From Candidatus Bathyarchaeota archaeon (lineage in GTDB: Archaea; Thermoproteota; Bathyarchaeia; Bathyarchaeales; Bathycorpusculaceae): a stretch of DNA of 64,000 bases. The stretch covers positions 1-64,000 of the forward strand of contig CAVYHV010000022.1 in NCBI GenBank assembly GCA_963768425.1, given 5' to 3'. This document shows, one piece after another, positions 886 through 33,717 of this stretch. Within the stretch, counting starts at the first letter, position 1. The number at the start of each line of letters is the position of its first letter. The position numbers and the translations under genes are program-made. Under the pieces are notes generated by a model. It saw nothing but the letters and a program-made list of their open reading frames with translations, was not told the DNA's origin and did not search any database.

Positions 886-2202
886 TTATTTTAGGGTAAA
901 ATTTGGAAGTGGGCAATGGTTTCTGGGGCTAATGCTGTGCCATTTGCCGTCAATAGGCACATACATACTGAGGCTTGGCCGGGGAATGCATATAGAAGGG
1001 ATGGAAATTGTGACGTCAATGACTGTGAAGTTTTGCAGTTGCATGGTATTTATGTAGGTAAATGAGCCTATTGGAACATTGGCTTGGTCAAATACCGTTA
1101 TGTCCAATTCTGAAGATGGGGCTGAAAACAATCCGTTATCGATTGTTAGCTCAATTGGGAGAGTTTGCCCAATATTAACGCTAGCGGGCATTTTGATGCT
1201 TTCTATGTTGCTTAAGTAGTTAAAAATAAAGGATGTTGTGTTGGTCAGTGTAGATCGGGAAAGGTTTAGCGAAGCAGTTATGTTCCATATGCCAAAGGTT
1301 ATTTCGGTTGCATTCGGGTCTGGAGCAGGCAATCTGTATTGGACAGTTGCAATGCCAGTTTGGTTTGTTAATCCGTCTGCCAATTGCTATCATTGTGCCG
1401 TTTGGGTTTTGCATTGAAAATGATACATCTTGGTTAGCAACTGAAACATTTTGAGAGGTTACTAATGCATATATTTGCAACAGGTCTCGGGGACCATAGG
1501 TGCCGCCGTTGCTGGCGCCTATGCCGCCTCTGTTTGTGAATACTTGAAGAGTTGCACTGGATAAATTACTGGTTGGCGGAGGAGTGGGAGAAGGACTTGT
1601 TGCAGTGTTTAAGACAGTGACAGTTGCACTATTGCAGGTAACGTTGATATGAGGTGAGCCTAATAGCGGCTGTAGGCGATGCACATATCCCCTGCTGATT
1701 GTTATTGGACTAACACCGTAGTTCGTTATGTTAAAAGTTAACGTTGCTAGCACGCCGGAAGTGTCAGTAGATGTATCCGCAGCCTACAATTCCTCGAGCT
1801 AAACCGCCTAGGATCTGCCCATTTGTATTGTCAAATAACGACTTGTGGTTCCAGTGAAGTCGGTGTTGAATCGCCGCCTGTGTTGTTTCTAAGGAAAGGA
1901 CCTCCCGTAACTTTTATCAGCTGTAAGCACTGTGGAATTCCAAGTTACCGTAGGTAACACCCAACCCCAAATGCCTGGTGAATTATCAATCCTAATATCA
2001 ATCATAACTGTTGTGTAAAGAGGATTTGGATTGGACCAACAGTAATGCTTGAAGTGCTCGTAGAACCCGATTGTACAGCGCTAATAGCTGGAGCTGGAGT
2101 GCTGGCTATGCTTACATGCGAGATTGCGAGTGGTATTGTGATAAGTAAGATGATTGTTAATGCTACGATTATCTGTTTTTTTGGTTTCAGCTTTTTCACC
2201 AT
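886..2202 (-). CDS. Cohesin-domain surface protein with C-terminal Ig-like modules (frameshifted)
   Basis: Signal peptide (2002..2202), cohesin signature (GIWGWVLPTVTWNS...GPFL...TSGVLATLTFNITNYG), P/T linker, then modules shared with neighbouring paralogs. Stitched from several ORF fragments. Confidence 0.7.
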
Positions 2203-2259
2203 CCAATTTTATCGTATTGATGTTTTAAGATGGTTTTTGCGCTTTTATTCGTTTCAAGT

Positions 2260-4440
2260 TTAAGATGAGATTTGGAAGGTGCCAGTTTTTTGAGGACAGA
2301 GTGGGACTCCGCCGGCTGTGGGAAGGCTAGTCATGAGGTCGGCATAAACAGTTGCTGTTCCTACATAAGCCCATGAAGGAATTGTGATGCTTACTGGAAC
2401 AGTGGTGGAGCCTCCTCCTGATGCGGGGGAAATGTTAGCTGTGTAACAGTCTATAGGGACTTCTTGTGAGTCACAAACCGTGACGGACAGCAATGAAGTT
2501 GATTTTAAGTCCTTGCACAGTAACATTAAAGTTCAAAGTGCCGGACCTAGCCACGCTTGCTGGCAGTTGGATTCCAGTGATAGTGACAAGGTGAGGTTGC
2601 TAACGCAGGTGAAGTTACATGTATCAGTTATGACAACAGATCCAACCTCAGGTCTGAGCCAACTATGGACCAATCCCGAATACTGATTTAGGGTTTGAGG
2701 CTGGGTGAAGGTATTCTAAATTCCATGTAGGCGTAGCCAGTTGCTGTTTGTAGGGTCTACATTAAGAGCGGCAACTGTTCCATTTGGATAAAAGACCGCG
2801 AAGCCTACCAGAGTGCCTGTGGCTACGGGCGCATCGTTATAGTTTACCAGTGCGTCCACTTTAACTAGATCTCTGCGGATTGTATGTGCCGCTGTTTACA
2901 TCGTGCCCGATGCCGCCTTTATCAGTGAATACGTCAATACTGGCAAGTTGCTGAGCAGTTTCAACTTGTATCCAAGCGAAAGTTGTTGCCGTATCTGGTG
3001 TAACTTGAAGAGGGAACGGAGTTTGTGTCGGGCGCAGTCACGATTAGAGTTACTTTAAGGTAACCGAGACTTGTAGCCTGAAAAGAAATTATTTGTCCAT
3101 TAAAGCATCCAAAGATTGAAGAATTCTGAAATTCCACAAGCCAAACATAGTCTGTTATGGGGCAAGCTTGCCCATCGTAACCAGCCGTCGAAGCACTGGC
3201 ATCCATCAGAACTGTATCGCCTAAAGCGTATACCGTTGCGTTCGAGAGGAGTAAATTTTGCCACTGGACCATGGACGCCAGATGGACTGGGTGTAGGGGT
3301 GGGCGTAGGAGGGTACGGCGAAGGATGGGGGTAGGAGTGGGACTGGTTGATGGAGTAGGGGTGGGACCGGTTGATGATAAAGCGGTAACTGTTGCACTAT
3401 TACAAGTGACAGAAGTTTGAGGGGCGCCAACAGCGTCTGTGTCGCTATCACGTATCCTCCGCTGATCGTTACTGGGCTGGTGCCGTAGCCAACCACAGTG
3501 AACGTTAAAGTAGCAACTACACCTGAGGAGTCGGTTGATACATCTGCACCTTGAATAGCTTCAGCTAAACCGCCCTGGATGTCTCCGTTGTTGTGTTGTC
3601 AAATAAGCTGTTTGAGTTGCCAGCCATGGCTTGTTGGGTCGCCGCCTGGTGTGTTATCTGCTAGAGAATGGACCTTCCGCTAACTTTCGTCAGTTGCAGC
3701 ACTGCTGGATTCCAAGACACGGTGGGTATAGCCCAGCCCCAAAAGCCAGCAGTGACACCGTCGACTCTGATATCAATTTGAACAGTTGTACCCACGGGAT
3801 CGGGACTAGGACCCAAAGTGATACTTGAGGTGGTCGTGGTTCCAGATTGGACGGCACTAAAATAAGCAGTTGAAAGGCTGCTGGCTGCCATCTGTCGCTG
3901 CTTCCAACGAATCATAGGTGAAAAGGGCGTTTGTTTGTGTTGAAGATATTTGCGGATTTGAATCGGTGGAGCTTGTTGCGGGTCCAAGTAGTCCAACATT
4001 GGTTAAATCTATAGGGGATGATCCGTAATTGATGATTTGGAATGTGAATGAGACTAAGTCTCCCGAACCTGAAACGACTATTTTGTAACGTTAAAACATC
4101 ATTTATGTTTGAAATTACTCCATCAGTATTGTCTATTGGTGAGGCGGTAAGCGATGTTTGCCCTGCAGAGTACAAGGAATGAACCTTCACTGAAGCTCAC
4201 CATTTGCAAGATTGAAGGATCCCATGATAAGCCCATACTCCAACCCCACAGGTCAGTTACATCAGAAATACTGGCTGTGACTGTGAAGGTTCCGCCAATT
4301 CCTAATGATTGACCCGAAATCGACGGCGGGTTTAGGCTTAAGCTCGTAGTCACATCAGCGGAGGTGCTTCTGGAAATTAAAACTGAAGAAAAAATAATGC
4401 TTGAAATTATCACTACGCAAAGATAACTTTTACTTTTAGT
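2260..4440 (-). CDS. Two-cohesin scaffoldin-like protein with PKD-like and Ig-like modules (frameshifted; start approximate)
   Basis: Cohesin 1 (GGTFTVTASISDVTDLWGWSMGLSWDPSILQMVSFSEGSFL), cohesin 2 (GTTVQIDIRVDGVTAGFWGWAIPTVSWNPAVLQLTKV), Pro/Thr linker, PKD-like segment (GDTVLMDASAS...ITDYVW), C-terminal IPSWAYVG module. Confidence 0.7.
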
Positions 4441-4699: not shown

Positions 4700-5386
4700 G
4701 AAGATGTGCTTGGTTGTGCGGTGATGTTCCCTCAAGATGCTATTGCATTAATTGCTATGTTGCCGTTTACTATCGTGGTGTTGATTGCTTCGTGAAGTCC
4801 TTCTTGGTACATAGTCTCGTTTGTACATATTGGTCGTATAAGTTGCGCTTGAAATTTTTATTGGCGAGGTTCCAGCGGCAAGCACTTGAAACGTTAAGGT
4901 TGCAAGAGTTCCGCTGCCGCTTACTGTGATATTTTCATGTAAATCGTCATGCTACGCTTGGAAGAGTACCTTGCTGGACCATAGGAACATCTGGCTGTAG
5001 ATATGAAGAAGGTTGGTCCAGCAGATTTTAAGAAGGGACCTTCCGTAACTTGTGTGAGGTTTAGAACAGCAGAGTTGAAGGTTAGGTAGCTGATATCCCA
5101 ACCCCAGAGGTCATGGACGCCACTGACGGTTAGGTTTACTTCTATCGTTTGTCCGACAGATGCCGACTGCAACTGCAGATTGGCTGGATCGAATGGCTAA
5201 AGTGGCGTTAGGCCATGATACGGGAACGGCGTTGGCGGTGGGTGAAGGTGTTGAAGAGGGCGTTGCATTCGTCGTTGATGAGAAATGCACATAGGCAATT
5301 ATGGCAACAACTAAGATGACAATCACGGCTAGCCCGATTATAATATTGTTCTTCATTTTTTGTCTTTTTCGACTTTTTTGCTTCAT
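4700..5386 (-). CDS. Single-cohesin protein with N-terminal membrane anchor/signal (frameshifted; 3' end approximate)
   Basis: Basic N-terminus plus hydrophobic helix (IIIGLAVIVILVVAIIAYV). Cohesin signature VGQTIEVNLTVSGVHDLWGWDISYLTFNSAVLNLTQVTEGPFL and later SGTLATLTFQV. Confidence 0.65.
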
Positions 5387-5424
5387 GTTTCTTCACCGAT
5401 TATTTAGTTTATTCAAAATATATT

Positions 5425-6321
5425 TCATAGTTTAGAAGATCCTTCAAGCGGTTGGACGTTGTTTCGCCTTTTTTTACTCCAGAGGAACGCAGGCACTGCA
5501 ATAATTGTGATTACGATTATGATTATTGGAATGATTATTCCTGATGGAAATTCTGGTGTTGAAAGGAGAGGCGATGCTGAAGGGGATTGGGTGGGACTTG
5601 ATGATGGTTTTGTCGTTGAAGATGAGGTTGGAGTTGGATTAGAGGACGAAGTAGAAGTAGGATTCGAAGTGACTGGAGGTGTTGGAGTAGGGCTGGACGA
5701 AGAAGTGTTTGCAAGAGCAACAATTGTTGCATTGTTGCAGGCAACGTTGACGCTGGCGTTAGCACCATACTAGGTAGGGTATTAAGTAGCCCCCTCTGAT
5801 GCCTATCGTGCTATTGCCTGTGGCCTGTCACGAGAAAAGTCAAAGTTGCAAGCACACCAGAGGTATCTGTCGACAAGCCCGTGCCTAAAATGCCCTCCGA
5901 TAAGCCGCCATCTATTATGCCACGATAATAATCAAAAAGTTGGCTTGAAGCACCCATAAAATCCGTGGTCTCGCTTTCATTATTGTCTGAGAGGAACGGA
6001 CCTCGTTGAACTTTGGTCAGGTTCAGAACTGCAGGATTCCAAGTTACCGTGGGTATAGCCCAACCCCAAAAACCACCTGAAACATCATCAATTCTGATAT
6101 CTATGTTCACGCTTGTGCCAATGGGATTCGGGCTAGGAGCCTAACGTAACAGTTGAAGTGCTTGTAGTTCCAGATTGAACTGCACTGATAACGGCAGTTG
6201 AAAGATTAGAAGTACTGGCGACCGCGTGTTCTCCCATAGTGATTCCGGAAACAAGAACTAAAGTTAATAGGATAACTGTGCTCAGAGCCAGCGAAGTGAG
6301 CAGATTTTTCTTCGTTTTCAT
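5425..6321 (-). CDS. Cohesin anchoring protein with S/T/P linker and PEF-type C-terminal membrane anchor (frameshifted)
   Basis: Signal peptide and cohesin (5811..6110). Hand translation of the minus strand gives the C-terminus ...SPLLSTPEFPSGIIIPIIIIVITIIAVPAFLWSKKRRN..., with stop at 5425-5427. Confidence 0.72.
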
Positions 6322-6608
6322 TTTCTTTAACCTCATTTTAATTGATATTTTCGCCAAGAGCAATTAGTTTTAGATAGTGTACACAGCAACACTTGGCTTC
6401 ATTTTGTGTGAACATAGAACATGGAAGCTTATTCTATGTTGAGTAAGTAAATTATTTAGAAAGCAATAGAGGCTGATCAATCTATATATGATGCTTTCCC
6501 AGCTTAAAATTATCTCAGACCAGGGTTTTTTATTTCTATAAAGGAGTTTATTGCGAATTTGGTAATTGGAATTAACGAATTTCACGATTTTTTATTTTCT
6601 TTGTTCCA

Positions 6609-8861
6609 TTAACTTCCGTTGGATATGTATAGTGAGGCTGATTGCTGCGGAGAGAACGGTAATCCGCCATTGGCTGGTGTGCCATTTAATATGTCGACGT
6701 TGACTATTGCAGGACCTACGAATGCCCATGTTGGAATGGTTAAGCTAATAGTGTACGTTTGTGTGTTGCTGCTGGTAGCAAGGCTTCCGGTTGCCGCAGG
6801 CGCGTTTCTGAAAGTATTTGGCAAGGCTACAGGCACTTGTTCAGAGTCTAAGATCGTTGCCGTAAAGTAGAATGGTGTTGGAGTCCAGTTGGTGCTGTTA
6901 ACAGTTGCTGTAAGGGTTACGACGTTGAGTCCTGCATAGTTTCGGAAGAAGACTGGTCCCACGCCATTGCTGTCATAAATACCGTTGTTTATTGTTACAC
7001 TTTGCAGGTTAAGCTGGTATCCGTAGTAGAATTGGCACGTATCAGTTAACGTAACTTGAAGATAGGTCGACTGATCCTGCCACTGTGATTACACCGAAAT
7101 AAGCTTGCGGATTGCTTCCTTGCCATGGAAATCTGTATGAAGCAGTTGCATACCCTGTCGCGTTAGTTGGTGCTTCGGTGTAGTCGATGTATTGACCGCT
7201 CGAGTAGATATCAAAGATTACTTCTTTTCCCGCGACTGGGGCACCGTTAGAAGTTACGTATCCTGTGAGGTCAACTAACTGTTGAGGCCCGAAAGAAGTG
7301 CAGTTTGCACCAGGTCCTTGACCGCCGTTCTGAGTCCAGATGTCAAGTTGGGACGTTGATGGAAGAACTTGAACTGTAAATGTTGTGGTGCCAATTTCTG
7401 TGTATGTTGGTGCATGGAGTGTTGGTTGGTGAGGGCGCCGTAACTGTTAAAGTTGCAGTTATTGTTCCAGGGGTCATGCCTACTTGAGCTGCTGTTAGGG
7501 CAACTGTCGGAGTGCGTGCTGTCACTATTGTTCCGCCGACAAGAGTTATGCGCCAGTTGTACGCTGTGATTGGACAAGTCTGATATGGCGGTACCATGTT
7601 GAGGCCAGCAGTTGACTGTGTACCGTCAAGGGTTAAGGGGTAGTTTGTCAAAGTCTGGTCGCTGCCTGCGCCCAATGGACTGCCAGATGTGGTAATGACT
7701 GCTTTTGGACCAGTTGCTGGCGCTGGGGTCCAAGAGTATGTTGCATTGTTAAAGGTCGAGAATAGGTATTGTTTGGTGTGGAACGGCGTCATTTAATAGG
7801 GTTGCTGGGTTTCCTGCTGTAAGGTTGATGTTGCAGTCGCTGTAAGTAACAATTGTAAAGGTTAATGTTGCTAATACACCTGATCGAGGCACTTGCACTC
7901 ATGTTGTGGTGTATGAGTCACTGATTCCTTTATCAACTCTTCCTAAATAATTATCGATGAATCCTGGCGCGAACAGTGTTGCGCCGCTTTGACTCAAGAT
8001 ATGTACCTTCTGCGATATTGGTCAATTGGATAACATTTGGATCCCATGTAACGCCGACAGCTCCATCCCCAAACGCCAACCGCGCCGTTGATGTAGAGGT
8101 CAACTTTGAATGTTCCGCCGATTGGGTTTTGCAGAGATGGCCATTGAATGGCTGAATTTGAGGTTGAACCGCTTTGGTATATGCTGATGGAAGCTTGTGA
8201 TTGCTGAACTGAAATTGATCCGCTATTGCATGATACGGGAATTTGCGGAGAGTTTACAGCGTCTGTTGCAACCAGGTATCCTCCACCGATGGTTACTGCG
8301 CTGGTGCCGTAGCCAACCACGGTGAACGTCAAAGTTGCAACCACACCAGATGGGTCAGTCGATTGATCTGCACCTAATATGGCTTCAGATAAACCACCTT
8401 GGAGGGCTCCGTGTAGCGTTGTCAAATAAGGAGCTGGATGTTCCAGTCATGTCTGTCGGGTCGCCGTCTGGAGCGTTGTCTGCTAAGAATGGACCTGCTA
8501 TAACTTTTGTCAAATGCAACCACGGCAGGATTCCAAGATACAGTGGGTATAGCCCAGCCCCAAATTGCGTTTGCTCCGCTGATGTAGATATCGAATTTTA
8601 CGGTTGTGCCGATTGGATTAGAGCTTGAAGACAAAGTGACGCTATTAACATTGCTTGTGCCTCCAGTGCCTGATTGAACCACCCTAAAGGTGCCAGTGGT
8701 AGTGCCGCGGCGCTAACTGAATTTGTGCTAAGTAGCATTGGCGCAACCATGAAAAGAACTAAGCGCAAATGCAATGAAGGGCTTTTTGTTTTTCAGGTTA
8801 AAGGCGATAAGGCTGTGGCAATTGAACCTGCTTGAGTGATTAGTTTTTTCTTTGTTTCCAC
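6609..8861 (-). CDS. Two-cohesin scaffoldin-like surface protein, paralog of 11416..13639 (frameshifted)
   Basis: GTG start after a GAGGAG-like RBS. Two cohesin signatures (KFDIYISGANAIWGWAIPTVSWNPAV; GGTFKVDLYINGAVGVWGWS), PKD-like and Ig-like modules. Visibly similar DNA to the 11.4-13.6 kb gene, and both end ...SLYIxNGS. Confidence 0.75.
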
Positions 8862-9298: not shown

Positions 9299-10367
9299 CT
9301 ATGTTCGCTTTCTAAGCCACACGACGGATCCGCCTAAAACAAATACGGTGAGTACTACAAGGATTCCAAGTACATCTGGCGGCAAAGTGTATGATCCGCT
9401 GTTTTGGGGTGGTGTGGAGGAAGGACTTGTGCGGGCAGTTGTTGTTGGGGGTTGCAGTTGAATTGCTGTCGGCGTTGGCGTGACGGTGGGTGTTGCTGTT
9501 GGCTGGGTGCCATTAACCCTTATTAGTACTGTGCTGTTGTCGGTTCCAAGTGAATCTGTCACTGTTAATGTTACGGTGTAATTTCCTGGATTATTAAAAG
9601 TGTAATTTGCGATCTTGCCTGTGAGGGTTTGTTGTGTGCCATCCGTAAATGTCCAAGTGTAGGTTGCATTGGCTCCACTTGAGACGGATTGTGATCCATT
9701 AAAGACTACTGTTGTTCCTACTGGTACAGTTTGCTCTGTGCCTGCGTTAGCGGTTGGAGGCCCAGGAAGTACAAGGGAAACTATGCTTGTTGAAAAGTAA
9801 GAAGCGGGAACTATTTGGGGGTGAGTAGCTACTTGGTTTGTATAGTTCCGCAATGGGAGGGGACCCGTCAAGATGACTGCACGCCGAAAGTTATTGGAGT
9901 TGATTGAGTTTGTCTTATTATTTGAAAGGTCATGGTTGCAAGGGTGCCGCTTCCGCTTGCGGAGTCATCCACGCCATTTGAAGATGTGGAGATGTCGCAG
10001 GCTAATTGCGCTAACTTTGTAAGTATCCTAGCTGAATTGCGCCTGTAATACGGTAATTGGGACAGGCATAAAAAGTGTTGTAGTATTGACTGGACAGGAA
10101 GCTTCCTTCTTGCTTGCTTATTAAAGTAAGGTAATTGGTGTCCCAGGTGACGTTAACCGCCCATCCCCAGAGGTTTTGAACATTAGAAATGTCGATGTTA
10201 ACGGTGAATTGTTCGTTAAGTTGGGTCGCGTTGTATGTTGCAGGATCTAGAAAAACAGAGGGGGATTGTTGAAGTCTGTGCAGATGCTGTTTGCTGTGTG
10301 TCGGAATTGTTGGGATTATCATGGCTGCGATCAGTATCAGGAGTAAGGCTCCGACTGTTTTTTTCAA
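9299..10367 (-). CDS. Cohesin-PKD-linker-transmembrane anchoring scaffoldin (frameshifted)
   Basis: Signal peptide, cohesin (EQFTVNIDISNVQNLWGWAVNVTWDTNYLTLISKQEGSFL), PKD domain (PPTANAG...TYTWTFTDG...NPGNYTVTLTVTD), PT-rich linker, C-terminal TM helix ending WLRKRT. Confidence 0.78.
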
Positions 10368-10368
10368 G

Positions 10369-11406
10369 TTATTTTTGGCTCTCCCAGTAGAGTATGTAGT
10401 CTGATAGGAAGAGGAAGAAGTCGTTCGCATCGATTTTGCCGTCATGACCAAGGTCACATGCAGTATTATAAGGTTGTCCAGAGTTGCTTGCAATGTATGC
10501 GCTCAGGAAAGATGAAGAAGTCCGAGGAGTCTACTGATGCCGTCTCCGTTAAAATCTCCTGCAGGGGTAGTTGGGATGTTGAATGATGTAGTCGCTGTGC
10601 CGTAGTAGCCTGACCAAGTTCCAGGAAACATACACTTGGTAGGTGCCACCTTTGGTATCATTACTGATGGAAGCGTGAATGTCATGCTGTAAGCGCCAGC
10701 ATTGCCGCTGTTGCTTGGCGCGGGACCTGTAGCGGGACTGTTTCCTGTGCCTTGCTGCGATTTGGAATGTGAAAGATTGTTCTGCGGCGAGTGGAATGCC
10801 GCCGTTCTGGGGAAAATCGGTGTAAACATCTGCATAGCCATAGGCCGTTCCAGAGTGCGCATCCGTTGGGATTGGAATGTTCCCGTTTCAAGCTGATTTG
10901 CGTCCTTGCCGATTTGAACTTGGGCTGTGTATAGTCCAAGTGGGACGCCGTTGCCATCGTATATGCTGATTGCAATTAAGACTAAGCGGGCTTGGTGGTC
11001 TTGGTTTGCGACTGTCATGGAGAAGTAGCCGTTGCCGTCGTTGTAGAAAGCCTGCTACAGGGTTGCCGTTTCCATCAGATGCGTAAGCAGACGAAATTTT
11101 TTCGGGCTCGCTAAATTCTGTTGCTGTGCCTGTTTCGATGGTTCTTAAAACCATGGGAACTGCTCGTCCGCTCGACTGGGTATAATATTTGTATTCCGAC
11201 GAGACCATCGCTTGGATTTTCGCTGTCTACGCCGTTATCAAGAGCGAAAGCGATCCACTAATTGTGATGGGCTGATAGAAATCGTAAGTTGTTGTCTGAT
11301 TTGTTGTTACTGTTAGATTTAGTGATGATGTTTGAGCATGTACTAATGCTGCACTTGAGATTATTAATATAAAAAGAAAAGAAAGGGATATGATTTTTGT
11401 TTTCAT
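10369..11406 (-). CDS. Secreted Ig-like protein with C-terminal dockerin (frameshifted)
   Basis: Signal peptide MKNKIISLSFLFILIISSAALVHA. Reconstructed C-terminus GDFNGDG...DFFIF...AYIA...NTACDLGHDGKIDANDFFLFLSDYILYWESQK* shows a duplicated Ca-loop/helix dockerin. Confidence 0.72.
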
Positions 11407-13670: not shown

Positions 13671-15070
13671 TTATGACTTAGTGCTTAACCGTTTGTGGGT
13701 TGGAGCGTAGGTTGTGAAGTAGTAGACGTATTCACTCAAGAATGCCAAGAAGCTTCCGCCGTTGATTGTGCCTTGGGCTGTAATGTCTGCGTATGGGTTG
13801 TAAATGTGGTTCGCGTAGTATGCGATGTATGCGTCAGTGAAGTAGAAGAAGTCGTTTGCATCAACAGTCAATCTTGGAACAGTCTGAGTCTGACCAGCTG
13901 AGTGGTGTGTAGGGTCCGAGGGCTGAGTTCTAGAACTTGTCCGCCTGCCATTGCTGCGCGTGGCATTACCATGTAGTCGTTGTCTGAGACGAAGTTAGGG
14001 TTGCGGTTAGCCGTTGAAGCTGTAGAGTTATGCCTGCGTCGAGTTTCATGTAAGCGATCCATACTCCTTCTGCCAGGTTAGGGCCTGTGGTTGGAATGGT
14101 GTTTGGTGTTACTTCCCAGAGCCATCTGAATGGTGTGTATGTGCCTGCGATAACGTTAGCTTGTGATGGTGCATAGTAGCCTGCTGGTTGCTGGTGCTGG
14201 TAGGCTTGCATTGTATATGCTTAGTGGGATCATGATTGCCTCGTTTGTTAGGTAGTAGCCTAGTGAAATGAATGCGATGGTGTCAGTTGCGGTTGTTATG
14301 TCAGTTACGACATCTGGGTTGCCTTCAGCCAATGTGTATGGAGCCATGTATTGACTGCCGGTAACTGCGCCTGCAGTGTTTGTGGCTTCAGCGCTTGTTG
14401 CCAAGTTGTTTGCCAAAGAAGTTGTTGAAGCAATCGTATGTTCCTGAGGTTGGGTCTCTTACGATTCTGTTGATTGGGTCACTTGCGTGTGCTGCTGCAC
14501 CTGCTGGGAGGGTTCCGCCTGCTGCTGTGTATGCAGTGAAGAATTGTCCCCATGTAGTGTAGATTGGGCTTGTTCCTGCTGCGTCAGTGGATTCGAATAG
14601 TTGGCAAACTTGTTTAGCTGTAAGGTCAGTTGGAGCCCATGTCATGTCTGCGCTGTAAACTATGGCGACACTGTCAACGCCGACTGCCCAAATCTGGACG
14701 GTGCCTGCGTTTGATTGACCCCACTCTCCTATGGTTGGAGGTCTTGACATTTCACCAATGTCTGCAGTTGCAGTGCCTGTGGTGGGTAGAATAGCTGGGA
14801 ACGCTGTTCCACTGCCTAAGCCTGAATGTTCATTGTGTTGATGTCTAGAGCGCTTGTGGTGTCCCCAACTGGGGTTAGCAGCAACCAAGCGAGTTCCAAT
14901 AAGTTGGGAACGTCGCTGATGCTTCCTGTGGCTATGGGCAAGACGGTGCTTGAGCCAGCGATGCTGATCGTGTTCGGAGTAATCAAAGCATTTATCGGAA
15001 GAGCGGCTGCAGAAAAAGCGAGCATTGCGAGTACTAACAAAGATAATATTATTTTTTGGGTTTTATTCAA
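13671..15070 (-). CDS. pstS: Phosphate ABC transporter substrate-binding protein with C-terminal dockerin-like domain, copy 1 (frameshifted)
   Basis: PstS motifs IAGSSTVLPIA, GLGSG, DIGEMSRP, RDPTSGTYD. C-terminus VDANDFFYFTDAYIAY...NPYADITAQGTINGGSFLAFLSEY. Divergent from pstC/pstA. Confidence 0.82.
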
Positions 15071-15357
15071 TTTGTATTTCTCCTTTCATTATCTGTGAAC
15101 GAGAATTATTTCGTTCGAACTACTAATCGAGGGTTAAGCCATATCTAGCTTACTCGCTGTAGATTATGAGGAAAAATTTAGTCTATAGAAGAATCAATAG
15201 TTTACGATATGCATGGAAGAAGTATCAGTTGGCGAGTCGTTTCTAATTATTACTATTGATTATAAATAGAAAACCGTTATCTTTACGGTTCTCGCCCATT
15301 TCACACAGTTGAGAGGGAGCTATCCCGCCTTTTCAGGCAGGCTTTAAGGGATGAACA

Positions 15358-16298
15358 TTGCCAAGAAACTGGAATTATAGAATCTTAAAGGATAACTTGT
15401 TCAAAATAATCCTGTTTCTATGCGCAGCTTCATCAATTATCATTGTCCTTTTCATCTTCGGCTATATGCTGTCGCAAGGAGGGAATGACGTTTGCTGGGT
15501 GGATAATGAACGGGATCTGGAATCAACAGTGTCGCAGGCGCACCATTTCCCTACTATTGCCAATACTTTATATTGTTCAATGGCAGGGGCATTAATCGGA
15601 CTCGCGATCGGACTCCCATGTGCAATTTACTTAGCGGAGTTTTCAAGTAGACTGAGAAACTTTGTCAAACCAGCTCTCGAAGTGCTGATGGGGTTTCCCT
15701 TCAGTTGTGATGGGACTGCTAATCTTAGTTCTCTTTTGCACAACTATATTCATAAACCCTCTTTCCGTTCGGGGAACATGCATTTTGGCTGCCTTTATGG
15801 TTCTTGGAATAATGGCTTTGCCAATAATCGTGAGCGTTTCAGAAGATTCATTAAGAGCTGTTCCTCAAGAGCAAAGAGAAGCATCTTACGGGTTAGGAGC
15901 CACAAGATGGCAAACCACAACCAAAGTTATAATCCCGAGCGCATTATCAGGAATTTCCGTTGCATTTTTACTTAGCACTTCTAGACGTCATGGGAGAAAC
16001 CATGGCTGTAACTTTAGTTATCGGTCCGCTTATCCCTCCGCCAGTCACCCTTAACCCCTTAGCAGAATCCGATGTAGTTACCAGTAAAATCGCTGCTTTG
16101 GTAACCCAAGTGGGTGAAGGCGGAAATTTATATTATCTTGCTCTTGGTTTAGCAGTCGCTCTTTTCATCTTAACGGTGTTCACTAATCTTGCTATAAGAA
16201 TAGTGAGAAGTAACCGGACCAATGTAGGTGTCCATGGAAGAGGTGTAAGCAAGGATGAAACCGAAAACACTGCTACAGACAATTTACGTCTAAACTGA
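15358..16298 (+). CDS. pstC: Phosphate ABC transporter permease PstC (frameshifted)
   Basis: AIYLAEF...RLRNFVKPALEVL, EAA loop EQREASYGLGATRWQT and GETMAV motif, spread over three ORF fragments. Confidence 0.85.
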
Positions 16299-17655
16299 AA
16301 AACGCGAAAAAAGAAAATTTACTGACTTTCGCGCTTCTTTTTATTGCAGGCATCCTTACATTGATTCCCGGTGTTACGTATCTTTCCACTACTTTAGTCA
16401 CTAAAATTCCAGCCTACACAAACTTACGACTGGATAGTTGCTAGGGTCAATATTGTCCATATTTATGATGCTGCCAAGCCTCATTTTATTCTCTGCAGCA
16501 TACCTCTTACTGGAATCTCATTCAATGGGCTGGAAACTATCGCTTGCAACATGCATTGCTGCAATTTTTTTAGCAGTTCTCAATCAGTCAGATATCAATC
16601 TGGCGCTTTCAATAGGATTTCTAAGCGGATTAGCAGTCGCATTAGAAATTAGAAATAGAAAAAGCGGAGAAACCGTCCTTAAAGATTCGCCAATCGCAAT
16701 AGAAAACATTGCAATACTCGGCATGTACATCTGCCTAATAATTTGCGTAAGCACCATAGTTTTCCTGTTTGGATACACAATCGTAAGAGGCGCACCATAC
16801 ATAAACTTTGATTTCCTCACAAAAATAAATTGGAGCTGGCCTCAAGCGGGGCAACTGATAGCGACAACTTTCTTCAACTTCACCTGGAGGCGTACTAGGC
16901 TACGCTTTCGGAACCATAATTATAACATTAGTCTGTGAGTGCATAGCAATTCCACTTAGGTTTAGCCGCAGCCATCTATCTATCAGAATACGCAGGACGA
17001 AACAAACTAACAGAGACCATTCGTTTCTTCATCGAGACACTCGCCGGACTACCTTCCGTCGTTATTGGATTACTAGTATTCCTCATTATAGTCCACGACT
17101 TAGGCTGGGGATTCACCGTCCAGGGAACAGCAATAGGATTAGCGATTATGATCCTACCATTTAACATAAGAGTGGTAGAAGAAGCGATGAGGTCGGTTCC
17201 AGACGCATTCAGAGAAGCTTCCTTTGCCCTTGGAGCCACCAAATGGGAAACGGCAAAGAACATCGTATTCTACGCAGCAACTCCGGGAATCATCACGGGC
17301 ATTCTTTTAGGGGCAGGCGCAGCAATGGGAGAAAGCGCATTGGTCCTTGTAGCTCAGGCGCTGACATACCCTTCAGGGACCCCAACTAATCCCACCTTTC
17401 CAGCTTTAAGCCACCTGTTTGGAAGACAAGCAAACGGTTTTCCAACATTGGCCAGTTTTTATCTACAACGCAGCAACGGTAACTCCAATAGAAATAGGCA
17501 CAGCAAAGTCCACGTTGGAAGGGTGGGTCATTAATCAAAAAGCATGGAGCGTGGCTTTTGCAGGAGCCGCTGTTCTTATAGCAATGTACCTTGTAGTTTG
17601 CATCGTAGCAATGTATGCAAGAAACCGTTTAGCCAAAAAAATCACGGGAAAATAA
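16255..17655 (+). CDS. pstA: Phosphate ABC transporter permease PstA with long N-terminal membrane extension (frameshifted; start approximate)
   Basis: AIYLSEY...IRFFIETLAGLPSVVIGL, EEAMRSVPDAFREASFALGATKWET and GESA motifs. Additional hydrophobic segments at 16320-16800. Confidence 0.8.
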
Positions 17656-17823: not shown

Positions 17824-19430
17824 ATGAAAAATCGCGCATGCGCGCTAGGAAGAAAAAGGAAGAGCCAATTGGCTTGCGCATCATTGATTCTGCTTCTATC
17901 CCTCATCCTAATTCAATCAATCTACGCAATTCAAGTAACAAATGCCCAAAGCACAACTGCAAACGGTCAATGGGCATTAAGTTTCCAAATCCAAAAAGTT
18001 GGACAGAACACCACAAGCAACATCTTTACACCCTTTGACCAGATCCAACTGACAGCAAACGTAACCTACAGAAACGCAACCCAACCAGACATATTAGTAA
18101 CATTCAAAGTGCAGGGACCATCAAACGCCGCTAACCCAACAAATATCACAACAGTCGCAACAACAAACGCCACTGGCCAAGCAGAATCCGTCTTCAGACT
18201 TCCAGCAGATAACCAAAACGAAGATTCATCAATAGGAAAATGGCAGGCAACAGCAACCATACAAGCAGACAACAGCACCCTTCAGCAAAGCCTAAGTTTT
18301 ACAACTCAATGGAACCTCCAAATAACATCAATAAGCACCCAAAACTCACAAGGACAAAACCAAACAATCTTCTACCCAGGCAAAACAGTCACAGTCAAAC
18401 TAACAATCAGCAACAAGGGCAGCCTCAAGAAGCAAACGTCACACTCAACATGATGGATGCAACAGGAAAAACAATCAACCAAACACAAATCCAAAACACC
18501 CAAATAAACGCAGGTTCCAATTTAACTCAAGTAGAAACCGAACTCCAAATTCCAACAACGCAAACACAGGCGAAGCAACAATCAACGCAGCAGTATACTC
18601 AGGAACTTTTCAGAACATAAATGTACCAGCTGCTGAAAATCAAACCGCCTACTTCACAATAGCCACCAACACGGCACCCACAACCGACTCCTACGCCAAC
18701 GCCCATCTTAACCGAAAACTCAGTAAGCCTCTTCTCATGGCTGTTGGTAGCAACAGGATTATTCACATTCACATCTCTCTTTATGTTCCTCAGAAGAAAA
18801 CCAACTCCAGGAATTGGCACTCAAATGCCGAATCTGCCACCCACAATATCCAACCCAGCCGTGGCATCCCCACCAATTTTCCCGCCAAACGCACAAGAAA
18901 CAACACAAAAGCAACCAACACAACCCACAGCAATACCCACAACGAACCCAGAAAAAACAATCAACGCAGCGATGATAACTCAATTGCCCAGCATATATGA
19001 AACATTAGATATTCCAACACCAGAATCAACATCGCCTCAAGAACAAAAACAAATCATGGTGGATCACTTAACCAAAATCTCAAGCATCAACCAAAAAGTC
19101 CAAACTTTAGAAACAGAGCTTAAAATCGAAAAAGAACAACTTAACAAAGAAATAACGGATCTCAACAAAACACTTGATGAGCAAGAGAGAGCCGTAAAGA
19201 GCTACTTTGAATCAATAAGACAAGCAATATCAACAATAAACACTCAACCAACAGAAATTAACGATAAACAAAACCCGCCTCAATCAGAAATCAGTAACGA
19301 ACAAAACGCTCAACCAAAACAACAAAGCACCGAAGACAAAAACGCAAAGGAAACACAATCCAAAATTCAGAAACAACAACCTACACGGCAAGAAGACACA
19401 AAAACGTCAGAGCACACCAAAGAAGACTAA
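17824..19430 (+). CDS. Single-pass membrane protein: extracellular Ig-like modules, TM helix, cytoplasmic Pro-rich and coiled-coil tail (frameshifted)
   Basis: Signal peptide and a module FTPFDQIQLTANVTY...VTFKVQGP shared with the scaffoldins. TM segment (WLLVATGLFTFTSLFMFLRRK) followed by a heptad-rich region (KVQTLETELKIEKEQLNKEITDLNKTLDEQ). Confidence 0.65.
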
Positions 19431-23035: not shown

Positions 23036-23039
23036 TCTA

Positions 23040-25057: not shown

Positions 25058-25936
25058 TTATTGATTAGAGTTAGCCCAGAAAGAAACATAGTCGGCCATG
25101 AAAACTAAGAAGTCAGATCCGTCGATCTTTCCATCGTTGTTTAGATCGCAAGCAGGGTCTAAAATCCTTTTTGTCTGGTAATCAATGTATGCTGACATAA
25201 AATAGAGGAAGTCTTGTCCATCAACAACTCCATCATGCGTGAAGTCGCCTGCTGGATATACTTTCAAAACAATGCTCGAATTACTGACCGTGTTGAACGT
25301 GTCACCACTGTAGATTGCTGTAATAGTCACTATGCCCGTCTTTGTATCATTGAAAGTTGTTGACGTGATGCCGGAACTCAGAGAAGACATGGGTGGATAG
25401 AAGCCACCCGTACTGTCGTTTGAGCTCCATGTTATGCTTCCGGTCGTGTTGTAGCCAGATACCGTTGCAGTCAAAGTAGTTATAGAATAGGCATTCAGGA
25501 CACTGGAAAAACTGACAACAGTTGTATTGGATTTAGTGATAGTCCTCACCTGAAAAGTGGTTGACGCTTTAACCGTAACCTGCGAGACGTCTGCCTGTGC
25601 TAAAACATTGTAAAAACCGGTAATGGTACCTGGGTCACTTCTAATCCGGAATTGCAAATCGCAGTTTCCGTTTAAGTCAGTACTAAGAGTTGTCGCAGTA
25701 ATCAGGTTGCCTGAGGGGTCAAATACCTGGACAGAAACTAACTTGCCAGCTATCGCTGCACCGTTACAGGTCAATGACCCATTTATCATCACTAAGCTGC
25801 CTAAAACGTACGCGGGCTTATCAGTCGATATTTTAAGGACGGCACCGTTATTTTCCGCAATCGCTTTGGGCAGTGCCACAACGAGGATGGACAAGCACAA
25901 GCAAGCAATTATTAATGATGATTTCTTCATACTCAA
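25058..25936 (-). CDS. Secreted Ig-like protein with C-terminal dockerin
   Basis: Signal peptide. Intact duplicated dockerin GDFTHDGVVDGQDFLYFMSAYIDY...DPACDLNNDGKIDGSDFLVFMADYVSFW. Confidence 0.85.
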   Translation of the reverse strand: MSMKKSSLIIACLCLSILVVALPKAIAENNGAVLKISTDKPAYVLGSLVMINGSLTCNGAAIAGKLVSVQVFDPSGNLITATTLSTDLNGNCDLQFRIRSDPGTITGFYNVLAQADVSQVTVKASTTFQVRTITKSNTTVVSFSSVLNAYSITTLTATVSGYNTTGSITWSSNDSTGGFYPPMSSLSSGITSTTFNDTKTGIVTITAIYSGDTFNTVSNSSIVLKVYPAGDFTHDGVVDGQDFLYFMSAYIDYQTKRILDPACDLNNDGKIDGSDFLVFMADYVSFWANSNQ

Positions 25937-26378: not shown

Positions 26379-27731
26379 TTAGTTAGTTGGAGCGTAGGTT
26401 GTGAAGTAGTGTACGTAGTAACTCAGGAATGCCAGAAAGCTTCCGCAGTTAATTGTGCCTTGTGCTGTTATGTCTGCATATGGATTGTAAACATGGTTCG
26501 TGTAGTATGCGATGTATGCGTCAGTGAAGTAGAAGAAGTCGTTCGCATCAACTACCAATCTTGGAACAGTCTGAGTCTGACCAGCTAACGGTGAATAATT
26601 GCCTAACGCTGAGTTCAGAACTTGGCCGCCTGCCATTGCCGCGCGTGGCATCGCCATATAGTTGTTGTCTGTGACAAAGTTCGGGTTGCTGCCAGCTGTA
26701 CCTGCGTCAGCCTTCAAGTAAGCAATCCATACTCCTTCTGCCAGGTTTGGACCTGTAGTTGGAATAGTGCTTGGTGTTACTTCCCAGAGCCATCTGTACG
26801 GTGTGTAAGTGCCCGCGATAACGTCTAGTTGCGACGGAGCAAAGTATCCTGCGCTGCCTGTTGGTGGACTAGCGTTGTAAATGTTTACGCTAATCATGCT
26901 GGTGGAGTATTCTAGAGCGATGGGCATCGGAACGAATGCGATTGAATCGTGTGAGGATGCAAGTGCTTCGGCGTATGTTTCTTGAGCATTGAGAATGGTG
27001 TATGGAGCCATATATTGACTGCCGGTAACTGCGCCTTGAGCATTCGTGGTTTCAGCGCTGTGACCAAGTTGTTCGCCGAAGAAGTTGTTCCAGCAATCGT
27101 AGGTTCCTGAAGTTGGATCCCTAATAATTCTGAAGATTGGGTCACTCATGTGCGTTTGAGCTGCTGTTGGAATTGCGCTTACGCTACCGTAGTATGCAGT
27201 TAAGAATTGTCCCCAAGTAGTGTAGATTGGATCTTGACCTGCAGCGTCGGTAGACTCGAATAGTTGAGCAACCTGCTTAGCGGTAAGATCTGTTGGAGCC
27301 CATGTCATATCTGGGCTGTAGACGTTTGCGATGCTGTCAATACCAATTGCCCAAATCTGGACGTTGCCTGCGTTTGATTGACCCCACTCAGCTACGGTTG
27401 GAGGTCTTGACATTTCACCAATGTCTGCAGTTGGGTTACCAGAAGCGGGTAAAATAGCTGGGAACGCCGTTCCGCTTCCCAAGCCTTGAATGTTCATAGA
27501 GCTGATATCTAGAGCGGCTGGGGTGCCCCAACTGGGGTTAGCAGCAACCAAGCTGTTCCAATAAGTTGGAAAAGTCGCGGATGCTTCTATCGCTATTGGC
27601 AAAACTGTGCTTGAGCCAGCGATGTTCAGATTGTTAACCGCGATTAAAGCATGTGCCGGAATTGCTGCTGAAGAAAATGCCACGATTACCAGCACCATTA
27701 TTGAAATCATTACTTTTGAGGCTCTATTCAA
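26379..27731 (-). CDS. pstS: Phosphate-binding protein PstS with C-terminal dockerin-like domain, copy 2 (intact)
   Basis: Same PstS motifs as copy 1 and highly similar DNA. C-terminus VDANDFFYFTDAYIAYYTNHVYNPYADITAQGTINCGSFLAFLSYY. Confidence 0.85.
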   Translation of the reverse strand: MNRASKVMISIMVLVIVAFSSAAIPAHALIAVNNLNIAGSSTVLPIAIEASATFPTYWNSLVAANPSWGTPAALDISSMNIQGLGSGTAFPAILPASGNPTADIGEMSRPPTVAEWGQSNAGNVQIWAIGIDSIANVYSPDMTWAPTDLTAKQVAQLFESTDAAGQDPIYTTWGQFLTAYYGSVSAIPTAAQTHMSDPIFRIIRDPTSGTYDCWNNFFGEQLGHSAETTNAQGAVTGSQYMAPYTILNAQETYAEALASSHDSIAFVPMPIALEYSTSMISVNIYNASPPTGSAGYFAPSQLDVIAGTYTPYRWLWEVTPSTIPTTGPNLAEGVWIAYLKADAGTAGSNPNFVTDNNYMAMPRAAMAGGQVLNSALGNYSPLAGQTQTVPRLVVDANDFFYFTDAYIAYYTNHVYNPYADITAQGTINCGSFLAFLSYYVHYFTTYAPTN

Positions 27732-27795
27732 TTTTTGTCATTCTCTTTTTCGGTTTGTGAAAACTGTCTTCGATTGCTTAGGAAGCCAATCAAGG

Positions 27796-28869
27796 TTATG
27801 CTGAAATAGTTATTTGTTGAGGTAGCGTTTGCATTCCAAGTGCTTCACCAACGATGTAGTAAGTGCAGGGTGACGCATGAAAAACTGGGCATGACAAAGT
27901 GGGAACGAGAAGGCAAGGACTAGCGCTTAAAGAGTTAAAATTGCAAACCTGATCCCACTCGAAACTCTGTGTGAAACTTGCACCTGGTAACAGAGAACGC
28001 TCCATGATGAACATGGGAAAAGCCTTTCCGTATGAATCTCGATATACTATTCCTGTGCTGTTGTAAACTATGTAATCAAAGAAACCGCCTGTGTAAGTGA
28101 AACTAATGGTTTTGTCGCTAACGTTGTTTACGCTTAATGTGAAATCAACTGGCTGGCCTACTGCGTAAACGGTCTGTGTAGTGGATAAGGTCAGCGTTAA
28201 CGTTAATGCGCCATTGTGAACAAAAGGAGTTGGACCAGCCCAATAGGCAATGTACGCATTCATAAACTCGAAGAAATCAGTTGCAGTAATGGCGCCATCA
28301 TGATCAAAATCTGCAGCAGGATTACATTGATGGCTACCGTCAAAGCTATTGTAGTCAATGTAGGCACTCGTGAACGCAAAAAAACTGTTAGAATCCACTT
28401 CACCTTGATCAGTTAAATCACCAAGGCAATTCACCGTTATCGTGCTACCCGTACAGCTGTCGCCTGTAGAAGTGGTTGCCCCGGCAATAGAAGAAGCAGT
28501 TGCGCTCAAAACATAGTCGCCTAAAGCGAAACCAGTGGTATTCCACGCGGTGGATGCAACCGCTGAGCCTCCGCTTGGTAAAGTAACAGCTTGAGTACTG
28601 ACAGGGATGTCGTTAACAGAAAATGTAACGGTACAGCTGACCGGTGAAGAACCAGAATTTTCTATATTAGCTGTAAGGGTTGCCGAAAAGCCCTGTTCAA
28701 CGAAAGACTGAGAACAAGCCACTTCAGTAACAATTATGCTATTCACTGTACTACTACTCGAATTAGCAAGCTGGGCGTCACCCCAAAGTTTTGTCTCAGA
28801 AAACGGCAAGAGAATGCTTGCTACAAAAACAATCAGAAGAAACATACACAGATGCTTTTTCAAAGCCAT
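27796..28869 (-). CDS. Secreted CARDB-like + dockerin + BsuPI-like Ig-domain protein
   Basis: CARDB-like region (TANIENSG...WNTTGFALGDYVLSA). Internal dockerin GDLTDQGEVDSNSFFAFTSAY...NPAADFDHDGAITATDFFEFMNAYIAYW. C-terminal YAVGQPVDFTLSVNN...FDYIVY...YRDSYGKAF...LLPG...FEWDQ. Confidence 0.75.
   Translation of the reverse strand: MALKKHLCMFLLIVFVASILLPFSETKLWGDAQLANSSSSTVNSIIVTEVACSQSFVEQGFSATLTANIENSGSSPVSCTVTFSVNDIPVSTQAVTLPSGGSAVASTAWNTTGFALGDYVLSATASSIAGATTSTGDSCTGSTITVNCLGDLTDQGEVDSNSFFAFTSAYIDYNSFDGSHQCNPAADFDHDGAITATDFFEFMNAYIAYWAGPTPFVHNGALTLTLTLSTTQTVYAVGQPVDFTLSVNNVSDKTISFTYTGGFFDYIVYNSTGIVYRDSYGKAFPMFIMERSLLPGASFTQSFEWDQVCNFNSLSASPCLLVPTLSCPVFHASPCTYYIVGEALGMQTLPQQITISA

Positions 28870-33700: not shown

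Positions 33701-33717
<17 letters not shown>

Follow-up and report, generated by a model that had tools for sequence, protein, structure and literature searches.

What cohesin and dockerin modules do where there is no cellulosome, in archaea especially, has long been asked, and only genomic lists have so far been brought to the question. Non-cellulosomal modules, those of Archaeoglobus fulgidus among them, are reportedly treated by Bayer et al. 1999, Haimovitz et al. 2008 and Peer et al. 2009. The closest described systems are those of anaerobic methanotrophic (ANME) archaea, in which proteins with up to five cohesins occur and dockerins are found on the ABC substrate-binding proteins NikA/OppA and TroA (Chadwick et al. 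2022, PLoS Biol, PMC9012536). Supplementary file 4 of that paper also holds an ANME-2a protein, HOHHFJHI_01811, which scores 252.9 bits on the PstS family TIGR02136 and has a type I dockerin at residues 284-339. The portions of the main text drawn on here leave this protein undiscussed and report neither operon linkage nor binding data; they do relate that archaeal cohesin-dockerin pairs have been shown to bind and that the archaea concerned are without multi-cohesin scaffoldins (PMC9012536). In the relevant portion of an earlier study, cohesin and dockerin domains were counted and adhesion was suggested (Timmers et al. 2017, PMC5244752). At the level of titles and abstracts, nothing in the literature was found to link a PstS or phosphate-binding protein to a dockerin, or to describe cohesin-dockerin systems in Bathyarchaeia. 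Here a 64-kb stretch of DNA from a soil archaeon of Candidatus Bathyarchaeota (contig CAVYHV010000022.1, positions 1 to 64,000; hereafter the window) is analyzed, in which cohesin and dockerin genes are clustered with genes of the phosphate transporter Pst. The reading preferred here, with a probability of roughly 0.6, is that this cluster represents a conserved Bathyarchaeia surface cohesin-dockerin system, built into the pst locus, which tethers a PstS protein that has no anchor of its own.

The locus resembles the ANME systems in being archaeal and non-cellulolytic, in the C-terminal dockerins on ABC binding proteins, in the presence of multi-cohesin proteins and in the surface localization that it suggests (PMC9012536). 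As dockerin-tagged ABC binding proteins have already been noted in ANME, the kind of system itself is not new. The Bathyarchaeia fusion differs in that it sits in a conserved gene order with scaffoldins and anchored cohesins, in that PstS is the sole binding-protein family seen with a dockerin of this type (57 proteins scanned, plus the PstS homologues), and in the degenerate calcium (Ca) loops of its PstS dockerins. With systems of the A. fulgidus type it shares cohesin and dockerin modules in an archaeon not degrading cellulose; the window cluster differs in having three two-cohesin proteins and a client linked to a transporter. The novelty lies in the conserved pst linkage, in the fusion proteins, in the degenerate Ca loops and in a scaffoldin and anchor set that can now be defined for Bathyarchaeia.

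An alignment of 44 PstS homologues was scanned against GTDB representative genomes, which yielded 18 loci (L001 to L018), 16 of them from metagenome-assembled genomes (MAGs) titled Bathyarchaeota or Bathyarchaeia. L001, L002 and L004 are close, collinear and largely intact relatives. In 17 of the 18 loci the genes follow one order: pstC, pstA and a gene for an MG2-domain protein with a membrane helix (MG2-TM) run one way and, divergently, pstS with a dockerin (PstS-Doc) is followed by a cohesin gene, an immunoglobulin (Ig)-domain gene with a dockerin (Ig-Doc), anchored cohesin genes and further cohesin genes. The first cohesin gene mostly encodes ~740 aa with two cohesins and Ig-Doc encodes ~335 aa; each syntenic locus has one or two anchored cohesin proteins with C-terminal membrane helices, and PstS identities over these loci are 29-72%. 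Some of the cluster genes are fragmented in L011, L017 and L018. The exception, L014, is a second PstS-Doc paralogue located 11 kb from L009 on the same contig. This arrangement is mirrored in the window, where PstS-1 lies at 26.4 kb and PstS-2 at 13.7 kb. The stop codon of PstS-2 ends at 13671 and the two-cohesin gene ScaA starts at 13639, leaving a gap of 31 bp, with pstC and pstA divergent on the plus strand from ~15257. The first-pass annotation of this DNA, made from the sequence alone, had described just such a spacing (about 30 bp) and divergence, and the linkage to pst genes that it proposed to look for in relatives is indeed kept in the 17 loci.

The hierarchy is reduced to a minimum in L007, where PstS-Doc is followed by a 239-aa adaptor with a cohesin and a dockerin and then by a cohesin with a membrane helix. 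A second possible adaptor, L002:1602-4607 (1002 aa), combines a propeller, an Ig domain, a cohesin and a dockerin. L007, from an Acidoferrum-titled MAG, and L010, from a Limnocylindrales-titled MAG, have the same pst-cohesin-dockerin cluster as the Bathyarchaeia loci, and the modules of L010 adjoin those of L018 in the cohesin tree. Since these clusters resemble archaeal ones, mis-binning is likely, rather than gene transfer. Three proteins join PstS-Doc to cohesins in one reading frame: L016:7271-9781, P0251 (1121 aa) and P0252 (865 aa, truncated where its contig ends). They contain one or two cohesins, with no signal peptide between the PstS-Doc and cohesin parts. The PstS part has diverged in P0251 and P0252, where DR stands in place of the SR of the phosphate motif and the N-lobe is replaced.

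As every cohesin gene of the window is frameshifted, the identifications rest on intact orthologues, profiles and folds. Fold predictions and family scans were run on intact orthologues, and the window sequence was used unaltered. A cohesin hidden Markov model (HMM) was built from 11 modules of intact orthologues and run over all stop-to-stop fragments of the 64-kb window. Its 25 partial matches were chained into 10 modules, all on the minus strand and belonging to seven genes (Table 1), of which ScaA, ScaB and ScaC have two cohesins each. Membrane anchors were read from the translations of three cohesin genes (C-terminal '...LGILVVLTVFVLGGSVVWLRKRT', C-terminal 'PEFPSGIIIPIIIIVITIIAVPAFLWSKKRR' and N-terminal 'NNIIIGLAVIVILVVAIIAYVHF'). 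The dockerin HMM gave six matches in five genes, two of them in one gene. Neither HMM found a module between 30 and 64 kb. The counts given in the first-pass annotation, namely at least seven cohesin genes (three with two cohesins, three anchored) and five dockerin genes, are thereby confirmed.

In each of the 18 loci the cohesin HMM detects cohesin genes, with between one and several modules apiece. Matches to its seeds arise by construction, so independent checks matter. Pfam Cohesin (PF00963, gathering score 24.1 bits) was above cut-off in 7 of 18 intact orthologues scanned: those of ScaA (L001:11427-13646, 39.3 bits), ScaB (L001:16015-18255, 27.8 bits), TM-Coh (L001:19464-20114, 35 bits), ScaC (L001:20398-21369, 46.7 bits, and L002:20325-21386, 50.7 bits) and Coh-PT-TM (L002:18099-19085, 29.7 bits), and one more at 28 bits. 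One further orthologue fell below the cut-off (18.7 bits), and a match was absent in four cohesin-bearing orthologues, namely L001 Coh-PKD-TM, L002 ScaA, L015 ScaC and L015 ScaD. Among raw window fragments, 5 of 90 had a Pfam Cohesin match and only one reached the gathering score (28.2 versus 24.1 bits). After frame correction, ScaA and ScaB are 85% and 82% identical to the L001 proteins named above. In the frameshift-aware alignment, ScaD is 58% identical to L015:19939-21312 (458 aa), an orthologue with a weak MG2 match. Coh-PKD-TM was aligned to L001:14671-15729, and its window fragment matches PKD_4 with an E value of 1.2e-20.

When a profile of 47 cohesin modules was compared with all PDB sequences, 20 of 20 matches were cohesins, the best being 3l8q_A, the type II cohesin dyad of A. 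cellulolyticus ScaB (E 6.3e-20). The AlphaFold2 (AF2) model of the L001 ScaA orthologue (predicted local distance difference test score, pLDDT, 78.9) also matches this dyad (3l8q_C, E 9.6e-13), although MG-domain chains precede it in the ranking, where it stands 17th, and the TM-score is low, the model being multi-domain. Its other matches are MG/Ig chains, namely complement C5, alpha-2-macroglobulins and the Haloferax S-layer protein 7ptp. The tree of the 47 modules has two clades (support 100/99). One contains the ScaA and ScaB modules, the second cohesin of ScaC, ScaD and the Coh-PT-TM modules of L001 and L002; the other contains the first cohesin of ScaC, Coh-PKD-TM and TM-Coh. Over nine orthologous sets, mean pairwise identity is 48% for the second ScaA cohesin, 32% for the first and 54% for the PstS dockerin. 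The better conservation of the second ScaA cohesin may be a hint of a conserved partner, nothing more. The tails of 26 anchored cohesin proteins from L001 to L018 fall into two classes, '...GGSxxWLRKRT' and 'PEFP' followed by a helix and a basic (K/R) tail. Tails of both classes are present in the window, at 5409-5500 and 9299-9380. A PEF-CTERM or PEFG-CTERM sorting signal on the anchored cohesins was rejected, with scores below threshold (20.3 versus 25, 14.7 versus 23 and 8.7 versus 23 bits), and is a lead only.

These features allow a comparison with the bacterial cellulosomes of Acetivibrio and Clostridium. Common to both are the cohesin and dockerin folds, with the dyad nearest to type II modules, a hierarchy of free multi-cohesin and cell-anchored cohesin proteins, and two cohesin clades. 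The window cluster differs in having neither glycoside hydrolases nor carbohydrate-binding modules (CBMs), so that the definition of a cellulosome does not apply, and in being anchored by membrane helices (WLRKRT and PEF-like tails), not by SLH domains or sortase. Its scaffoldins are without a dockerin and have at most two cohesins per protein, and its clients are PstS and beta-sandwich proteins.

The dockerin modules were identified in several ways. Of 30 further dockerin proteins encoded in the loci, 13 exceed the cut-off of Pfam Dockerin_1 (PF00404, type I dockerin; 22.9 bits). Ig-Doc, 86% identical to L001:13659-14666, has orthologues scoring 25.3 and 39.5 bits. The internal dockerin of the CARDB-BsuPI protein at 27796-28869 is found by the dockerin HMM at E 2e-13, with only 13.3 bits on Pfam Dockerin_1. 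The C-terminal module of PstS reaches only E 0.003 on NCBIfam dockerin_GC, and one distant PstS homologue, P0102, has a precomputed PF00404 annotation. With an HMM made from PstS C-termini alone, E values of 1e-16 to 1e-18 are nevertheless reached on those dockerins of the same clusters that Pfam recognizes, and precisely five genes of the window are picked out as dockerin-bearing. A profile of 51 dockerin modules gave full-length PDB matches to the dockerins 6kgc_B (6.2e-6) and 2y3n_B (1.1e-5). EF-hand proteins score as well or better (2jnx_A, 3.7e-7), which is expected, as dockerins are built of F-hand motifs. In the AF2 model of PstS-1, the dockerin consists of two helices (396-411 and 429-446), with a pLDDT of 94-98 over both and 80 at the extreme C terminus. 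The premise of the first-pass annotation that the modules fold as cohesin and dockerin thus agrees with Pfam matches of orthologues, PDB profiles, the modeled two-helix module and the dyad match of ScaA.

Both PstS paralogues of the window are dockerin-tagged. The AF2 model of PstS-1 has a pLDDT of 90.6, and its Foldseek matches, listed to about rank 49, are all PstS, phosphate-binding or DING proteins (best 4jwo, E 7.8e-16; target-normalized TM-scores of the top matches 0.69-0.82). In a comparison of the PstS family profile with the PDB, 10 of 10 matches are phosphate-binding proteins. The proposal that two of the dockerin clients are PstS-type proteins is therefore supported by predicted fold and profile. 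The motifs G39-S40-S41-T42, G85-S86-G87, D103, S108-R109 and S208-G209-T210 show conservation of at least 90%, up to full invariance, among the 44 sequences and align with GSSTA..MSR..SGT of 4pqj. They are putative counterparts of the E. coli PstS phosphate ligands Thr10, Ser38, Asp56, Arg135 and Ser139-Thr141. PstS-1 has 111 homologues at E <= 0.001, nearly all full-length; PF12849 is precomputed for many of them, many carry the JGI name 'ABC-type phosphate transport system substrate-binding protein', and a Bathyarchaeia origin is given in the name of one. PstS-2, 91% identical to L004:11651-13039 after correction, has a dockerin HMM match of E 3e-32, and a fragment of it matches TIGR02136 at E 7.1e-5. 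All of the PstS proteins have an N-terminal signal peptide, and in the 44 aligned there is neither an N-terminal Cys lipobox in the consensus nor a C-terminal membrane helix.

As regards the permeases, the L002 orthologues of pstC (L002:8798-9700) and pstA (L002:7423-8808) score 197.5 bits on TIGR02138 and 207.2 bits on TIGR00974, against equivalog cut-offs of 196.45 and 193.45. The MG2-TM gene at 17824-19430 occupies the position expected for pstB, and a homologue adjoins pstA in 17 loci. Its L004 orthologue (L004:7316-8905) has a weak MG2 match; the gene has no NCBIfam match, and its protein Atlas scores are all <=0.83 and are leads only. Relatives follow pstA at L001:5895-7370 and L002:5947-7404.

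In a monoderm cell, which has no outer membrane, the binding protein of an ABC importer is held at the membrane by a lipid or transmembrane anchor. The need would be the same here, and the proposed tether would differ in being non-covalent, a dockerin inserted into an anchored cohesin. That PstS carries a dockerin beside cohesin genes suggests that it is held at the surface by docking and not by a lipid anchor. In such a mechanism, PstS would be secreted by its ordinary signal peptide, without lipobox or membrane helix, and its C-terminal dockerin would plug into a cohesin. Several cohesins would be fixed to the membrane through long, flexible Pro/Thr linkers, and others, paired on the secreted Ig-domain proteins ScaA to ScaD, would add capacity. 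Docking would keep PstS at the surface within reach of the PstCA permease, with several copies per scaffold, and the same sockets probably also serve the cluster's remaining dockerin proteins, of the Ig/MG2 and CARDB-BsuPI kinds. The module identities, the architecture, the gene order and the fusion proteins are established; that the PstS dockerin binds a cohesin of the cluster, which cohesin this would be, and a purpose of tethering or concentrating PstS are inferred. Simple membrane retention of a binding protein that has no anchor accounts for the data no less well than an array for scavenging. A complex model of the L002 ScaA dyad with the L002 PstS dockerin, run without controls, gave scores of 0.02 and 0.00 (mark 0.32) and speaks neither for nor against binding.

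A bolder form of this proposal holds that cohesin-dockerin docking is the standard anchor of the high-affinity phosphate receptor of Bathyarchaeia and forms a Pho-linked capture scaffold. Anchor-less PstS would be held non-covalently on membrane-tethered cohesins and two-cohesin Ig-domain scaffoldins through a largely Ca-independent dockerin, and the number of receptors per permease would be tuned by the number of sockets, beside a polyphosphate storage island. This extended version is offered tentatively and is rather doubtful as a whole; if true, PstS would become the first part of a transporter for which dependence on cohesin-dockerin assembly has been shown.

Several observations weigh against the tethering of PstS. 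The custom cohesin and dockerin HMMs were seeded from these same loci, and the 17 syntenic loci come from one archaeal class, so that shared ancestry contributes to the conservation of gene order. In the fusion proteins, the dockerin and cohesins of one chain need not bind each other. ScaA has neither a dockerin nor a membrane helix, and ScaA to ScaD as a group are without anchor and without dockerin, leaving their retention on the cell unexplained. pstB, the Walker-A ATPase gene, is absent from the window and from 17 of the 18 loci, and therefore lies elsewhere. PstS-1 scores 36.1 bits on TIGR02136, and L002 PstS 50.1 bits, against a cut-off of 206.6; neither PstS-1 nor its C-terminal part has a Pfam family match, PF12849 included. 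Pfam Dockerin_1 has no match in the window PstS dockerins even at E values up to 10. The remaining objections concern the clients and the Ca loops, and belong with the two rival explanations to which they lend weight.

Only two of the window's five dockerin clients are binding proteins; the other three are of beta-sandwich type (MG2/Ig and CARDB-BsuPI). To survey clients more widely, the dockerin profile was run against 1.84 billion cluster representatives, where it matched 4521 proteins at E <= 0.001, of which 378 reached E <= 1e-10. From the best 150 matches, in a library without taxonomy, 57 were scanned for client domains; the 93 dropped had more than two matched stretches or fewer than 250 aa or, in 11 cases, were already in the PstS search. 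The 57 comprise seven PQQ propellers, four glycoside hydrolases (two GH5, one GH26 and one catalytic core), two polysaccharide-lyase-like proteins, six that have cohesins too, two PBP_like_2 proteins, single NosD, Kelch, BsuPI, TIG and other proteins, and 23 without a family; PstS, represented by the two PBP_like_2 proteins and by its own homologue family, is the only binding protein among them. For the cluster itself, neither the 90 + 27 window fragments nor the scanned orthologues yielded a match to a glycoside hydrolase or CBM family, as the first-pass annotation had stated for glycoside hydrolases. The varied clients indicate that the system is a general display device, of which the window cluster is the phosphate-linked part. 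The idea of a surface scaffold that arrays PstS thus holds as regards the modules, the PstS clients and the pst linkage; it does not hold as a scaffold dedicated to solute-binding proteins.

Other surface proteins occur around the cluster. PQQ-type beta-propeller proteins are encoded at 19700-21056 (-) and at 63462-63998 (+), one of them with a Pro/Thr (PT) linker and a C-terminal helix. The partial gene at the left edge (21-668, minus strand) is 32-37% identical to parts of L003:18505-21399, a protein of 965 aa that has a dockerin at its C terminus and contains a PQQ-like propeller together with a region weakly resembling polysaccharide lyases; owing to this resemblance, a sixth dockerin gene may run off the window.

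From the same client survey it can be argued that the whole is a general surface-display or envelope system in which PstS is an incidental passenger. The clients would then serve adhesion, envelope architecture or polymer degradation, and the position beside pst would have been inherited within one lineage, not kept for a phosphate function. The resemblance of the C-terminal halves of the scaffoldins to MG-domain chains and to the archaeal S-layer protein fits this explanation. It has to contend, however, with a pst-cohesin order that persists down to ~30% PstS identity, with PstS-Doc invariably placed directly upstream of the first cohesin gene, with the PstS-Doc-cohesin fusions and with the presence of a dockerin on both PstS paralogues. 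It is considered unlikely, if still to be reckoned with.

The second rival explanation turns on the Ca loops. A canonical dockerin is a duplicated 22-residue F-hand with D, N or E at Ca-ligand positions 1, 3, 5, 9 and 12 of each loop. The PstS dockerins of the window retain two of these five positions in loop 1 and two in loop 2. Loop 1 is degenerate in all 18 PstS dockerins (2-3 of 5), and loop 2 is also reduced (2-3 of 5) in those of the window, L001 to L004 and L013; 33 other dockerins average 3.8 (loop 1) and 4.5 (loop 2) of 5. Elsewhere in the window, the protein at 25058-25936 has 3/5 and 5/5 and that at 27796-28869 has 1/5 and 4/5; the L001 orthologue of Ig-Doc, which itself lies outside the alignment, has 5/5 and 4/5. 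Owing to the degenerate Ca loops, the PstS dockerins are atypical, and the Ca-dependent binding that had been foreseen for this Bathyarchaeota host is doubtful. The PstS module could accordingly be a dockerin by descent that has lost cohesin binding and now self-associates or docks to the extended PstA/PstC or to the MG2-TM protein. The lost ligands, the missing Pfam match of the window copies, the unexplained N-terminal extension of PstA (~150 aa) and the conserved uncharacterized membrane protein after pstA would all suit such a history. The module is, however, strongly conserved (mean column identity 59%) and clearly homologous to canonical dockerins of the same clusters. PstS and Ig-Doc dockerins also vary at the same helix positions between clades (FF versus IT/LT), parallel changes that fit a shared partner surface. 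Loss of cohesin binding is thus judged improbable, and docking of PstS on a cohesin is retained as the preferred reading.

A third suggestion, that the cluster is a decayed pseudogene relic without function in its Bathyarchaeota host, has in its favor only the number of broken frames and is very improbable, given that the same genes are intact in L001, L002 and L004 and that the indel pattern is that of a poorly polished assembly and not of gene decay. The open reading frame (ORF) listing has short, overlapping same-strand ORFs in 1-21000 and long, intact ones in 22000-64000. When intact orthologous proteins were aligned to the window DNA with a frameshift-aware dynamic program, 100 frame-breaking events were found across 13 consecutive genes (893-21056), a density of roughly one in 200 nt. 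Insertions of one base account for 72 of them, insertions of two bases for 8 and deletions of one base for 20. The call of the first-pass annotation for correction of indels was thus well founded. A single in-frame stop occurs over all 13 genes, and the three genes at 22.9-28.9 kb are free of frame-breaking events. Identity to orthologues after frame correction is 57-91%, similar to the 76-89% of the three intact neighbors. Because the events are insertion-biased (80 versus 20 deletions) and scattered, end abruptly, come with a single in-frame stop and leave a high corrected identity, they look technical, the product of a low-coverage or unpolished assembly, rather than of pseudogenization. 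An origin in homopolymers was rejected: 7 of the 100 events lie near a run of at least four identical bases, versus a background of 13%.

The error-rich stretch breaks off just before an insertion sequence (IS) element at 21748, whose DDE transposase gene (21748-22827, plus strand; DDE_Tnp_1, E 3.6e-10) has no homologue in the otherwise collinear L004. Two further genes, a small Zn-ribbon-like ORF (24494-24910) and the MG2-Ig-dockerin gene (25058-25936), have no L004 counterpart between the GT gene and PstS. In the carbon monoxide dehydrogenase/acetyl-CoA synthase (CODH/ACS) cluster, the CODH alpha-type gene (Prismane family; 59195-61586, minus strand) is represented by two overlapping ORFs (59195-60775 and 60687-61586). 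At least one frameshift is therefore suggested in the otherwise clean part of the window.

Table 1. Positions of cohesin, dockerin, pst and polyphosphate genes in the window; module coordinates are given with each gene, those of dockerins being taken from the dockerin HMM
Feature	Position	Strand	Description
ScaD	891..2202	-	signal peptide, one cohesin 2035-1610, PT linker, MG2/Ig-like beta-sandwich domains; 6 indels
ScaC	2260..4440	-	signal peptide, cohesins 4362-3914 and 3867-3434, PT linker, Ig-like domains; 18 indels
TM-Coh	4732..5386	-	N-terminal membrane helix, PT linker, one cohesin 5190-4826; 5 indels
Coh-PT-TM	5409..6336	-	signal peptide, cohesin 6137-5823, long Pro/Thr/Ser linker, 'PEFP' + helix + basic tail; 6 indels
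ScaB	6609..8861	-	signal peptide, cohesins 8694-8201 and 8194-7761, Ig/MG-like domains; 14 indels
Coh-PKD-TM	9299..10367	-	signal peptide, cohesin 10277-9883, PKD, PT linker, C-terminal helix ending WLRKRT; 7 indels, 1 in-frame stop
Ig-Doc	10369..11406	-	signal peptide, beta-sandwich domains, C-terminal dockerin 10509-10378; 9 indels
ScaA	11416..13639	-	signal peptide, cohesin dyad 13528-13042 and 13032-12647, ~400 aa Ig/MG-like beta-sandwich; 9 indels
PstS-2	13671..15070	-	C-terminal dockerin 13910-13698; 31 bp upstream of ScaA; 9 indels
pstC	15257..16298	+	phosphate ABC permease, divergent from pstS-2, approximate start; BPD_transp_1 E 7.3e-14; 6 indels
pstA	16255..17655	+	phosphate ABC permease, ~150-aa N-terminal extension; BPD_transp_1 E 2.7e-20; 6 indels
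MG2-TM	17824..19430	+	conserved uncharacterized gene after pstA; signal peptide, MG2-like beta-sandwich, membrane helix, Q/E/K-rich tail; 3 indels
MG2/Ig-like dockerin protein	25058..25936	-	C-terminal dockerin 25234-25067; intact; Dockerin_1 27.4 bits, dockerin_GC 28.9 bits
PstS-1	26379..27731	-	450 aa, intact; signal peptide without lipobox Cys, PstS fold, two-helix dockerin 26597-26385
CARDB-dockerin-BsuPI protein	27796..28869	-	internal dockerin 28407-28228; intact; BsuPI 47.3 bits, CARDB 24.5 bits
Ppk1	31558-33717		downstream of cluster
YfcE-Ppx	33701-36058		YfcE-type phosphodiesterase fused to Ppx-like part
Ppx	36025-37605		
PPK2	37637-38524		
CHAD-metallophosphoesterase	39524-41365		
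Ppx-domain III/HD protein	41394-41996		

The six genes from Ppk1 to the Ppx-domain III/HD protein form a polyphosphate island adjoining the cluster, which fits a region concerned with phosphorus economy. Purine synthesis genes and CODH/ACS genes lie beyond it.

With respect to the function of cohesins and dockerins beyond cellulosomes, the cluster offers a concrete case: a client of known function (PstS), a transporter next to it and intact orthologues for expression. The candidate sockets are defined, 10 cohesins in two clades, of which three are membrane-anchored. The PstS dockerins might in addition supply Ca-independent docking modules for protein engineering. If PstS does dock, this would explain how an anchor-less binding protein is retained by a cell without an outer membrane, and nutrient capture would join the functions of cohesin-dockerin systems. 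The finding is also relevant to how Bathyarchaeia, a group abundant in soils, peat and sediments, acquire phosphorus.

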